DNA of 41,326 bases from Bacillota bacterium (GCA_051745185.1 JBNJDV010000005.1:1-41326); one strand, 5' to 3'; counted from the first letter of the stretch, positions 15,055 through 17,659 are shown. Notes: generated by a model not told the origin, from the sequence alone. Numbers and translations are program-made.

Positions 15055-15076
15055 AAAAAAATCCCTCTGCAGGGAT
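15055..15076 (-). terminator. Intrinsic terminator after udk
   Basis: Minus strand ATCCCT-gcag-AGGGAT followed by TTTTTT. Confidence 0.8.
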
Positions 15077-15080
15077 CTAT

Positions 15081-15686
15081 TTAAAGATGGGATTTGATTT
15101 TTTTGATTATTAGATCATTTGCGATGTCATTTAAGCCGCCATTTGGTATAATTATATCAGACATATATTTCGTAGGTTCTACAAATTTTTCATGCATTGG
15201 TTTTACAGTAGAAAGATATTGGTTTTTAACCGACTCAAAAGTTCTTCCCCTATTTTTAATATCCCGATTAATTCTTCTTAATAGTCTAATATCTGCATCT
15301 GTATCAATATATATTTTAAGATCAAACAGTTCTCTTAACTTCGGATAATGGAATATCAAAATTCCTTCTACAATAATTATAGGTGAAGGATTAACTTTTT
15401 TTACTTTAGATAGTCTTTCATTTGTTTTATATGAATATACAGGTCGTTCAATAGGTGATCCAGCTACTAAACTTTTTAAATGTTTAACTAAAAGTTCTGT
15501 CTGAAATGAATCAGGGTGATCAAAGTTAATTTTATTTTCAGGCACATTAAAATGACTTTTATCATAGTAATAAAAATCATGTCTTAACATAGTTACATCA
15601 TCTTTGAAAGAATCCTTTAATATTTGGGCCAATGTAGTTTTACCAGAGGCCGTTCCCCCGGCTATTCCAATTAATAATTGTGACAA
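15081..15686 (-). CDS. udk: Uridine kinase
   Basis: IGIAGGTASGKTT, NFDHPDS, IVEGILI, RRINRD, RGR, IIIPNGG. Confidence 0.96.
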   Translation of the reverse strand: MSQLLIGIAGGTASGKTTLAQILKDSFKDDVTMLRHDFYYYDKSHFNVPENKINFDHPDSFQTELLVKHLKSLVAGSPIERPVYSYKTNERLSKVKKVNPSPIIIVEGILIFHYPKLRELFDLKIYIDTDADIRLLRRINRDIKNRGRTFESVKNQYLSTVKPMHEKFVEPTKYMSDIIIPNGGLNDIANDLIIKKIKSHL

Positions 15687-15733
15687 CTATTTTCATCCTT
15701 TCAGCTTTTATTATATATTTAATATTAAAATAT

Positions 15734-16078
15734 TTATCTATATCCATTCTTATACATCTTACTTAGATTATATGATTTATCATTTTTTTCTTTCTTCTTA
15801 TTCTTTATCTGATGAATATCATTAAATTCTTTGTAAATTTCATGGATAGCAACAACAGCAGTTTTCGTGGAGATGTCCTGATTAATAACCTTATTAATAA
15901 TCTCATTAATTACATATCTTGCTTCTTCAGGTAACCCAGCAATATCATGTATTAACTGTTCAAGATGGTTTTTGATTTCAGAGTGATATGTAATATCCTG
16001 TCTTGAATTATTTTCTTTTACTTGTATCATTTTTCTTAGCTCAATTAACTTTAGTAATGTTTCGGTTCTTGATAACAA
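15734..16078 (-). CDS. Hypothetical helical protein whose C-terminal tail matches that of the DnaD-like protein
   Basis: TTG start after SD GGAGGCGA, 18 nt behind the ATPase gene; 114 aa; ends LSKMYKNGYR. Confidence 0.8.
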   Translation of the reverse strand: MLSRTETLLKLIELRKMIQVKENNSRQDITYHSEIKNHLEQLIHDIAGLPEEARYVINEIINKVINQDISTKTAVVAIHEIYKEFNDIHQIKNKKKEKNDKSYNLSKMYKNGYR

Positions 16079-16096
16079 TGTCTAATCGCCTCCACT

Positions 16097-16942
16097 TTAA
16101 TAACTGTTCTGCCTATAATCATCTTCAGGAGAACTCAAAAATAAAAATTGATATCCTTTTGTCATCTCACTTATACGAGATGCTAAGTATGTAGCAGCTT
16201 TATGATGATTTGTATTGTAATATGGATTTTTTTCATTATCTTGTGCCATTTTAAAGAAATCAATATTTGAAGTAAAGATTACTGGTTTATTATAATCATA
16301 TCTGTGATTTAACCAAGCGGTTAAATTTCCAAATACGAACTCTGTATTGCGTTCTCTTAAAAAATCATCAATCACAAGTAATTTAGAGTTCATTACAGCA
16401 TTTTCTATAGTATCTAATTCTCGCTTGAGATCTTGGTTTGAAGAGTTAAACTGTCGTTTTTTCCATAAGTAATTTACTTCACTCATAAAAAATACCGGCC
16501 GCCAGTTAAAATCACTAAATGATACTCCTCTTCTTGAATAATATTCAGGTCTTTTATCATATATTTCCTGAGCAAAAACTTTAGCAGCAGTTTTTAAAGC
16601 AGCAACAGCAATATGTGTTTTTCCACAACCATTAAACTTACTGTATATATAAACTGATTGTGGACCTTTTATTGCAGTTAATATATTTTCAGCATAGGTT
16701 TTTATAGTTTTTATCTTTTTAACATTTTCTCGTGGACAAGCCTTAAAATTAAAACTTGAAAAACTAGCATTATCAAACTTAGGCGGAATATGACTGTTTT
16801 CGATAATTATTTCATATATTCTTTTAATCGCTTTTTCCTTTGAAATATGTTTATCTATATCCCTTTTTATAGTAGTCTTCGAGGGTTTCTTCTTCATCTC
16901 TTTTTTCTTTTTTTCGATTAATTTCTTGAAGTCTTTTTTCAT
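16097..16942 (-). CDS. DnaC/IstB-like AAA+ ATPase (helicase-loader family)
   Basis: IPPKFDNASFSSF, Walker A SKFNGCGKTH, Walker B LLVIDDF, RYDYNKPVIFTSN, SRISEM, DYR. Start uncertain (16978, 16942 or 16894). Confidence 0.85.
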   Translation of the reverse strand: MKKDFKKLIEKKKKEMKKKPSKTTIKRDIDKHISKEKAIKRIYEIIIENSHIPPKFDNASFSSFNFKACPRENVKKIKTIKTYAENILTAIKGPQSVYIYSKFNGCGKTHIAVAALKTAAKVFAQEIYDKRPEYYSRRGVSFSDFNWRPVFFMSEVNYLWKKRQFNSSNQDLKRELDTIENAVMNSKLLVIDDFLRERNTEFVFGNLTAWLNHRYDYNKPVIFTSNIDFFKMAQDNEKNPYYNTNHHKAATYLASRISEMTKGYQFLFLSSPEDDYRQNSY

Positions 16943-17486
16943 ACTCTTCCATCCTTTGTTTTTCTTCCTTAAAATCATGTACTGTATATATTGATCTATT
17001 TAGATAATCTCTTAGCAATGAAATTATATAATTTGTTGGATTACCACTTGCTTTCTTAGAACTTATTTTCATAACCTCAACAATCACATCTTCACTAATC
17101 CCATCATCTACAAAAGATAACAGCTTCTCCAAAAAAGTGGGAGTTAAGTTTAATGTTCCAAAATATTTATCCCAATTACTGGCAATTTTCGAACCTTTTT
17201 CATCATATTCATTTTCTTTATTTTCTAGATTTTTACTAATCAGTTTGTCTGGTATAGTTAAAAAAATATTAACATCTTCTTTATCTAACCATCCCTTTGT
17301 AAATAATGAATCAAGTAGTTCAAAATCACTTATTATCTCTTTATCAATTAACCATTTAGTTTTATTTAATAACTTAGTAATTTCAATTTTTGAAAATAGT
17401 CTAATAAGTTGACCTAATTCTCTATCACTTAATCTATCATCTTTAATTAAAACATTTGGTACTTTTAAATAGTCTAAATGCTGCAT
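16851..17486 (-). CDS. DnaD-domain (DnaB_2-like) replication protein with phage-type HTH-like N-terminus
   Basis: N-terminal VPNVLIKDDRLSDRELGQL; C-terminal W..YFG...LTP..E.L....DG...DVI...NYI..LL.DY....IYTV pattern. ATG 17486 follows SD AGGAGTGA (track start 17519). Confidence 0.8.
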   Translation of the reverse strand: MQHLDYLKVPNVLIKDDRLSDRELGQLIRLFSKIEITKLLNKTKWLIDKEIISDFELLDSLFTKGWLDKEDVNIFLTIPDKLISKNLENKENEYDEKGSKIASNWDKYFGTLNLTPTFLEKLLSFVDDGISEDVIVEVMKISSKKASGNPTNYIISLLRDYLNRSIYTVHDFKEEKQRMEEYEKRLQEINRKKEKRDEEETLEDYYKKGYR

Positions 17487-17521
17487 TATTATCACTCCTG
17501 ACTCTTTAGGCAGCATCAATT

Positions 17522-17550
17522 ATGATAACACAATTATTTTAATATTTCAA
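17522..17550 (-). promoter_or_regulatory. SigA-type promoter of the DnaD/DnaC-like module
   Basis: Minus strand TTGAAA-17 nt-TATCAT with extended -10 TG. Confidence 0.6.
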
Positions 17551-17633: not shown

Positions 17634-17659
17634 AAAAAACAGGAGGTGAACTCCTGTTT
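17634..17659 (-). terminator. Intrinsic terminator downstream of csoR
   Basis: Minus strand AAACAGGAG-ttcac-CTCCTGTTTTTT. Confidence 0.8.

Follow-up and report, generated by a model that had tools for sequence, protein, structure and literature searches.

A short C-terminal peptide shared by a DnaD-like protein and an unrelated small protein in a Halanaerobiales helicase-loader operon

A chromosomal operon in a Halanaerobiales genome encodes a DnaD-like protein, a DnaC/DnaI-type helicase loader and a 114-residue protein, and we found that the first and the last of these proteins, whose bodies are unrelated, end in the same short peptide. Sequence comparisons support the view that this ending (the class B tail) is under selection as a short linear motif common to both proteins. 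On balance, they also suggest that it is probably a portable docking peptide, with the loader as its most likely partner and the small protein acting as an adaptor or a competitor. The small protein belongs to an uncharacterised family that is likely a component or a regulator of helicase loading.

The window that we analysed is a stretch of 41,326 bases, in which the three genes of the module lie tightly packed on the minus strand (Table 1). In the gene caller's version, the DnaD-like protein starts at 17486 and comprises 211 residues. The longest open reading frame of the loader gene covers 16097..16978, with the conserved start at 16942, and the TTG start of the small gene is found 18 bases past the loader stop, with a GGAGG site upstream. 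The operon is flanked downstream by the uridine-kinase-family gene and by ComEA/ComEC-type genes, and upstream by a gene for a metal-sensing repressor, which indicates a chromosomal setting. The hairpin that follows the kinase gene is likely the 3' end of the operon, and a second terminator-like hairpin is located at 17637-17659. Among related genomes, a uridine-kinase-family gene 3' of the small gene is confined to 11 of 30 loci, all in the genus of the window, and the chromosomal neighbourhood of the module is therefore not fixed across families.

Table 1. Features of the operon and its surroundings, in coordinates of the window.
Feature	Coordinates	Strand	Remarks
DnaD-domain (DDBH2) protein	16851..17519	-	222 aa from first TTG
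DnaC/DnaI-type AAA+ helicase loader	16097..16942	-	281 aa from conserved ATG
Small protein	15734..16078	-	114 aa, TTG start
Terminal peptide, DnaD-like protein	16851..16877	-	last 8 codons and stop; class B tail, Y type
Terminal peptide, small protein	15734..15760	-	last 8 codons and stop; class B tail, Y type
Small-protein N-terminal domain, conserved	15803..16078	-	residues 1-92
Small-protein variable linker	15761..15802	-	K-rich in the window's genus
Out-of-frame overlap of DnaD-like and loader genes	16851..16942	-	92 bases
Promoter-like site ahead of DnaD-like gene	17522..17550	-	10/12 consensus positions, with TG; consensus match only
Terminator-like hairpin after uridine-kinase-family gene	15059..15078	-	
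Uridine-kinase-family gene, downstream of small gene	15081..15686		

Metatranscriptomic contigs from four libraries of a single study cover the operon at an identity of at least 99%, and two RNA-library contigs (15108-17006 and 15286-17284) bridge the kinase gene into the DnaD-like gene. These bridging contigs are a weak hint of co-transcription, since contigs cannot prove a single transcript. One RNA-library contig lacks two bases within the tail codons of the DnaD-like gene (16875) and one base further upstream (17260), which could reflect a strain variant or an assembly error.

The assignment of the first two proteins is based on profile searches. The DnaD-like protein matches Pfam DnaB_2 (PF07261) at E 2.8e-9 with 37 bits against a cut-off of 22, which places it among the DDBH2 proteins, and it matches the PHROG DnaD-like helicase loader at E 1.9e-10; its orthologues are encoded upstream of the loader gene in related genomes. 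The loader matches the PHROG DnaC-like helicase loader at E 1.1e-31, and a profile of 39 loader orthologues detects Aquifex DnaC (3ec2) at 1.1e-16 as well as E. coli DnaC and DnaI chains. In the loader alignment (A3), the residues of G-x-G-K-T-H and D-D do not vary, so that the protein carries the Walker A and Walker B motifs of the DnaC/DnaI/IstB clade of AAA+ proteins. Cut-offs of the NCBIfam equivalog models were not reached by the loader, which is therefore a divergent DnaC/DnaI member. It is the sole DnaC-like gene detected in this assembly, where it occurs as a single copy, and a profile search of genome contigs with the loader alignment returned only two Halanaerobiales loci together with distant DnaC genes of other phyla.

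The small protein has no match among Pfam, NCBIfam, PHROG or PDB sequences. None of 29 family members matches PF07261 at E<=1, a profile search with the family alignment (A1) against PDB chains including 5he8/5he9 returned nothing at E<=0.1, and the spacing of the YxxxIxxxW-type motif that marks the last DDBH2 helix (PMC5204125) is absent from the conserved helices of A1. Similarity to the initiation control protein YabA is weak (E 0.41 for the window's protein; matches in 7 of 29 members, best E 0.013, all under the 30-bit cut-off), and we rejected that identity; this and the weak matches to Peptidase_S64 and other Pfam families lay below their cut-offs and are attributed to low-complexity linkers. 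Searching 1.84 billion representatives at E<=1e-10 recovered 26 clusters of 82-135 aa, all of which bear the tail; one named member is annotated as a hypothetical protein. The N-terminal domain is acidic, with R4, L11, R15, V76, A77 and E80 invariant in A1. We read it as helical from its sequence pattern, and its invariant charged residues suggest that it may form a second interface.

The initial annotation had drawn attention to an ungapped match between the C termini of the DnaD-like and small proteins at 13 of 25 positions. The count is correct, and none of 100,000 shuffles reached 13 when the small protein was shuffled as a whole, over its last 40 residues or over its last 25 residues. The DNA match reported with it was also recovered: the window holds just two copies of the 12-base word TTATCTATATCC, one at 15734 and the other at 16851, with an expected count of 0.01 and with two matches in none of 100 shuffles, and 49 of the last 78 coding bases are identical between the two genes. 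Across the 1.86-Mb assembly, nine of the 7,378 open reading frames with a length of 50 aa or more have the ending G-[YW]-[RNDKE]-x0-1, and the ending Y-K-x-G-Y-R is confined to the DnaD-like and small proteins among these 7,378.

The caveat that part of the match is low-complexity K/E proved justified, with 6 of the 13 matches (N, K, K, E, K, D) falling within the K/E-rich linker. In the small protein, this stretch is not conserved outside its genus, which deprives the linker part of the match of meaning; in the DnaD-like gene, the matching stretch is co-encoded with the loader N-terminus in another frame. The meaningful match is the terminal peptide of approximately eight residues. Likewise, the remainder of the two proteins is unrelated, as had been proposed: hhalign without linker and tail gave a probability of 0.5% (E 0.12), compared to 69% (E 4.4e-5) in the profile-profile comparison that included the tails, and the sole stretch aligned between the small domain and the tail-less DnaD-like alignment spans 14 columns and lacks significance. 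We accordingly rejected the small protein as a DDBH2 homologue, because its profile match vanished after tail removal.

Both carriers are built in the same manner across genomes: a conserved domain leads into a linker whose length and composition vary widely, and the chain closes with a conserved peptide of the form hydrophobic-x3-(G)-aromatic-(R/N/D/K). Among 17 genus-group representatives, the mean pairwise identity of the last eight residues is 0.37 for the small protein, compared to 0.11 for the 20 residues that precede them; the corresponding values for the DnaD-like protein are 0.31 and 0.15. The tail is kept in every readable small-protein orthologue (42 genomes, 26 database clusters), which speaks against the recent neutral duplication that the initial annotation would have recognised by a tail missing from orthologues.

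The tail of the DnaD-like protein is encoded within a gene overlap. The start of the loader gene, which we placed by means of a conserved N-terminal motif with its Shine-Dalgarno site, was found in 39 of 45 loci; of the others, two lack the motif, one is cut at a contig end and three have no stop. From this start, the first ~30 loader codons share their bases, in a different frame, with the final ~30 of the DnaD-like gene, among them those of the tail, so that the DnaD-like tail is dual-coding, and conserved motifs are present in both reading frames. An overlap of ~30 codons is unusually long for bacterial genes. The small-protein tail lies outside any overlap and is conserved nonetheless, which indicates that the peptide itself is under selection. 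The overlap is present in every two-gene locus except those of G052 (L080) and G055 (L084), where it is reduced to ATGA: here the DnaD-like protein is ~30 residues shorter, its tail is entirely lost and its stop overlaps the loader start codon. The small protein of both genomes retains the tail, with a 3-residue extension, and is the only tail-bearing module protein left.

At the codon level, residues common to the two tails are encoded by an identical codon in 101 of 176 pairs; leucine, for example, is encoded by TTA or CTG in one gene and by CTC or CTT in the other. Because synonymous codons differ between the tails, recent gene conversion is unlikely.

The tail occurs in two types, …G-Y-R and …G-W-N(x), and the aromatic type agrees between both proteins in 40 of 40 genomes (24 Y/Y and 16 W/W). 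This comparison omits G030, G050, G052 and G055; the small gene of G030 was not assembled, its contig ending within the loader gene, and the contig of G050 ends inside the small gene. In a loader tree calculated without the overlap columns, the W-type rows (18) and the Y-type rows (21) each form one clade with a support of 100. The Y/W switch thus maps to one deep branch, and the 40/40 agreement therefore reflects one historical event. Co-variation of the tails, which the initial annotation proposed to test, is hence weaker than the agreement in type makes it look.

Within clades, tail co-variation is weak. In permutations uncorrected for kinship, the observed value was reached in 951 of 10,000 cases in the Y clade and in 194 of 10,000 in the W clade. 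Parallel changes are seen in G037, where both tails end in I instead of N (codons ATA and ATC), and in G019, where the terminal R is lost in both proteins. Non-parallel endings are found in most f8 genomes (E/D-Y-R in the DnaD-like protein versus G-Y-R, or R-Y-R in two genera, in the small protein), in G004, G007 and G010 (R-Y-R versus G-Y-R) and in G017 (G-Y-Q versus G-Y-R).

The distribution of the tail follows that of the module. An intact small-protein open reading frame was detected by profile search in 43 of the 102 genomes of the class, spread over families f1 (10/12), f3 (16/17), f5 (3/4), f6 (2/2) and f8 (11/11), and it is present in every genome whose assembly reads through the module; among the same 102 genomes, it was not found in f2 (0/23), f4, f7 or f9-f13. 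Strong matches to the DnaD-like subfamily and to the loader are restricted to the same five families, and the class B tail occurs only where the three-gene module occurs. A scan of viral contigs for the small protein gave 17 pattern matches, none of which is a relative. In f2, f4 and f7 of the same order, and in f9-f11 of the same class, neither a module-type DnaC-like loader nor DciA was found. DciA occurs only in f12 and f13, plus once in G057, and was rejected on these grounds as the alternative loader of the module-lacking families of the order.

Mobile elements and viruses reuse these tails. From a family search of 72 genomes of the order for additional DnaD-domain proteins, we took 30 loci, in which 27 open reading frames matched the DDBH2 profile. 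In Y-type hosts, five of nine extra DnaD-domain proteins end in G-Y-R and one ends in N-Y-R; the genes adjoining them include RecE-like and RecT-like genes, an excisionase-like gene or a ParA-like gene. In W-type hosts, G-W-N-T is found near the end of five of 14, all in genus g3, whose small protein ends in R-G-W-N-T. The prophage initiators of G001, G002 and G007 bear the tail, and the only loader in these genomes is that of the module. Extra DnaD-like genes that have their own adjacent DnaC-like gene encode a different tail, the class B tail being present in none of four. In f2 hosts, which lack the module, all three extra DnaD-like proteins copy the tail of a universal 351-aa DnaD-family protein.

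Viral contigs related to one prophage initiator carry either the class B tail (85% and 72% identity) or an f2-type tail (42% identity), so that one phage scaffold bears either of two tail classes. Since tails on mobile initiators match the host, the tails are swappable tags that follow the host. One mismatch was encountered in G031 (L115), a member of a W-type family with an extra DnaD-like protein of Y-type tail; the module was not found in the G031 assembly, which is 83% complete.

The closest published analogue of such a tail is that of B. subtilis DnaD. Its last eight residues, of which W229 is essential, bind DnaB, and ssDNA binding does not require them (PMC10201431, PMC10201434); the tail of B. 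subtilis DnaB in turn binds the AAA+ domain of DnaI (PMC13326638). The DnaD-like protein studied here resembles B. subtilis DnaD: both belong to the DnaD family and end in a disordered, bipartite tail with a basic proximal part and a distal tip of ~8 residues. An aromatic residue of this tip is critical in B. subtilis, and docking through the tip is predicted for the protein of the window. Here, too, the linker is variable and the terminal peptide behind it conserved, with its aromatic residue present in 40 of 40 genomes. In both organisms, a DnaD-family gene adjoins a loader gene.

Other features differ from those of B. subtilis. The motif is hydrophobic-x3-G-Y-R or G-W-N here and an F-Y-N-W region there; the same peptide here also ends a protein outside the DnaD family, encoded after the loader; the module here is confined to part of one order; and in B. 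subtilis the partner of the DnaD tail is a DnaB(Bsu)-type protein rather than the loader.

Two other described systems share single aspects with the operon. C. difficile CD3653 (DnaD-like) and CD3654 (loader) form an adjacent gene pair (PMC5204125), and thus another chromosomal DnaB_2-family gene beside a DnaC/DnaI-like loader gene in a clostridial-type Firmicute; CD3653 has three domains, however, and the accessible text of that report describes no third small gene and no shared tail. Phage 77 ORF104, a 52-aa inhibitor of S. aureus DnaI, requires its C-terminal tail to bind the AAA+ domain, and that tail occupies the pocket used by the linker of DnaI itself (PMC4887207). It sets an example of a small protein that occupies a site on the loader through its tail, although it is phage-encoded and inhibitory and has a tail not common to the host initiator, whereas the small protein of the operon is chromosomal.

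Taken together, these comparisons lead us to propose a lineage-specific helicase-loading module, in which the DnaD-like protein would serve as initiator or organiser alongside the DnaC/DnaI-type loader and the small protein. In each carrier, a folded domain would be joined through a flexible linker to the terminal peptide of ~8 residues, hydrophobic-x3-(G)-aromatic-(R/N), and, if docking follows the B. subtilis example, the peptide would fit into a groove of its partner. The best candidate for that partner is the loader, whose gene lies between those of the two tail carriers. It is the only module member without a tail, and it is the most economical target because the class B tail is restricted to genomes with the module and initiators with their own loader have another tail. 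The small protein would present the same peptide on an unrelated, well-conserved domain and would thus occupy the site of the initiator tail, either as a bivalent adaptor that links the loader to the partner of its N-terminal domain or as a competitor controlling which proteins reach the loader. Protein binding by the tail, the loader as its target and the role of the small protein are what we infer from these patterns; since the invariant charged residues of its N-terminal domain suggest a second interface and the small protein is the sole tail carrier in G052 and G055, we lean towards an adaptor rather than a competitor.

The same design recalls SSB. The acidic C-terminal tip of SSB is an interaction hub, and SSB too joins a folded domain through a flexible linker to a terminal peptide that is conserved, with partner recruitment being a prediction in our case and with a different motif and chemistry.

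A more far-reaching possibility, which we regard as unlikely although worth stating, is that the small protein is a chromosomal tail decoy or adaptor, produced in step with the loader and dedicated to its docking site, that gates which tail-bearing initiator, of the host or of a phage or plasmid, gets the loader. If true, control of helicase loading would be combined with protection against replication hijacking, and the small protein would have taken over the function of the DnaD-like tail in G052 and G055.

A different partner is proposed by the reading that the tail docks in the DDBH2 groove of the universal DnaD-family protein mentioned above. This protein has 351 aa and two DnaB_2 stretches (contig 28, 11927-12979), adjoins the replicative helicase gene, is found in 61 of 61 relatives and has a conserved aromatic and acidic C-terminal tail of its own, which in f2-type hosts is copied not only by the extra DnaD-like proteins but also by a viral contig. 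In its tree, f5 stands apart from f3, and an AU test does not reject the W-type hosts as one clade (p 0.565), so that the tree does not set the history of the module apart from that of its hosts and favours neither partner. Docking on the 351-aa protein would mirror that of B. subtilis DnaD through W229 on the C-terminal domain of DnaB (PMC13326638, PMC10201431); such a protein is encoded here and throughout the 61 relatives, and the DnaD-like protein of the window has the two-domain size of DnaD with an aromatic residue near its end. However, the class B tail is restricted to module-bearing genomes whereas the 351-aa protein is universal, the extra DnaD-like proteins of f2 copy its own tail rather than class B, and extra DnaD-like genes with their own loader bear a different tail. 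A groove confined to module-bearing hosts would be compatible with all of these points; we consider this partner improbable.

Still less probable, in our estimation, is that the tail is a nucleic-acid-binding tip and the small protein a small accessory factor that binds DNA. In favour are the basic and aromatic residues of the Y-type tails, the K-rich linker in the window's genus and the ssDNA binding of the B. subtilis DnaD tail; yet the residues responsible there are 205-224, the last eight being dispensable (PMC10201434). Moreover, W-type tails are neutral to acidic, the small-protein linker of G057 is strongly acidic, and neither the lineage switch nor the host-matched tails of mobile initiators would be expected if the ligand were unchanging DNA. 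That the match is functionless, whether left over from a partial duplication, produced by gene conversion or carried along by selection on the loader N-terminus, is very improbable: the DnaD-like tail region is dual-coding and 60 residues align at 31% identity in BLAST when composition is not corrected for, but the small-protein tail is free of overlap and nevertheless the best-conserved part of the C-terminal half in five families, synonymous codons differ and the same tail recurs on other scaffolds.

The initial annotation knew of no described system of this kind. That statement does not hold for the docking tails themselves, which have been published for DnaD-family proteins of B. subtilis, but it stands for a chromosomal tail-sharer outside that family: in the literature searched, we found no chromosomal non-DnaD small protein with the tail of an initiator. 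The docking-tail principle is thus known from B. subtilis DnaD and DnaB, and a tail shared with a non-DnaD chromosomal protein appears to be new.

Only recently has work on B. subtilis begun to map how Firmicute-type initiators pass the helicase-loader complex on to the origin, with short C-terminal tails as connectors, and the locus described here provides a natural comparative data set for this idea. In it, a tail is common to two unrelated operon proteins and switches type together in both; it has been lost from one carrier and kept on the other in two genomes; and it is copied or class-swapped by phage and plasmid initiators according to the host.

Finally, two phage-type modules (L097 in G026 and L098 in G034) contain genes in the order DnaD-like, DnaC-like and SSB-like. 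Their SSB-like genes end in a P-F tip rather than a class B tail. Their overlap architecture is that of the chromosomal module, with a different initiator tail, and the chromosomal module may descend from a phage element similar to L097 and L098.
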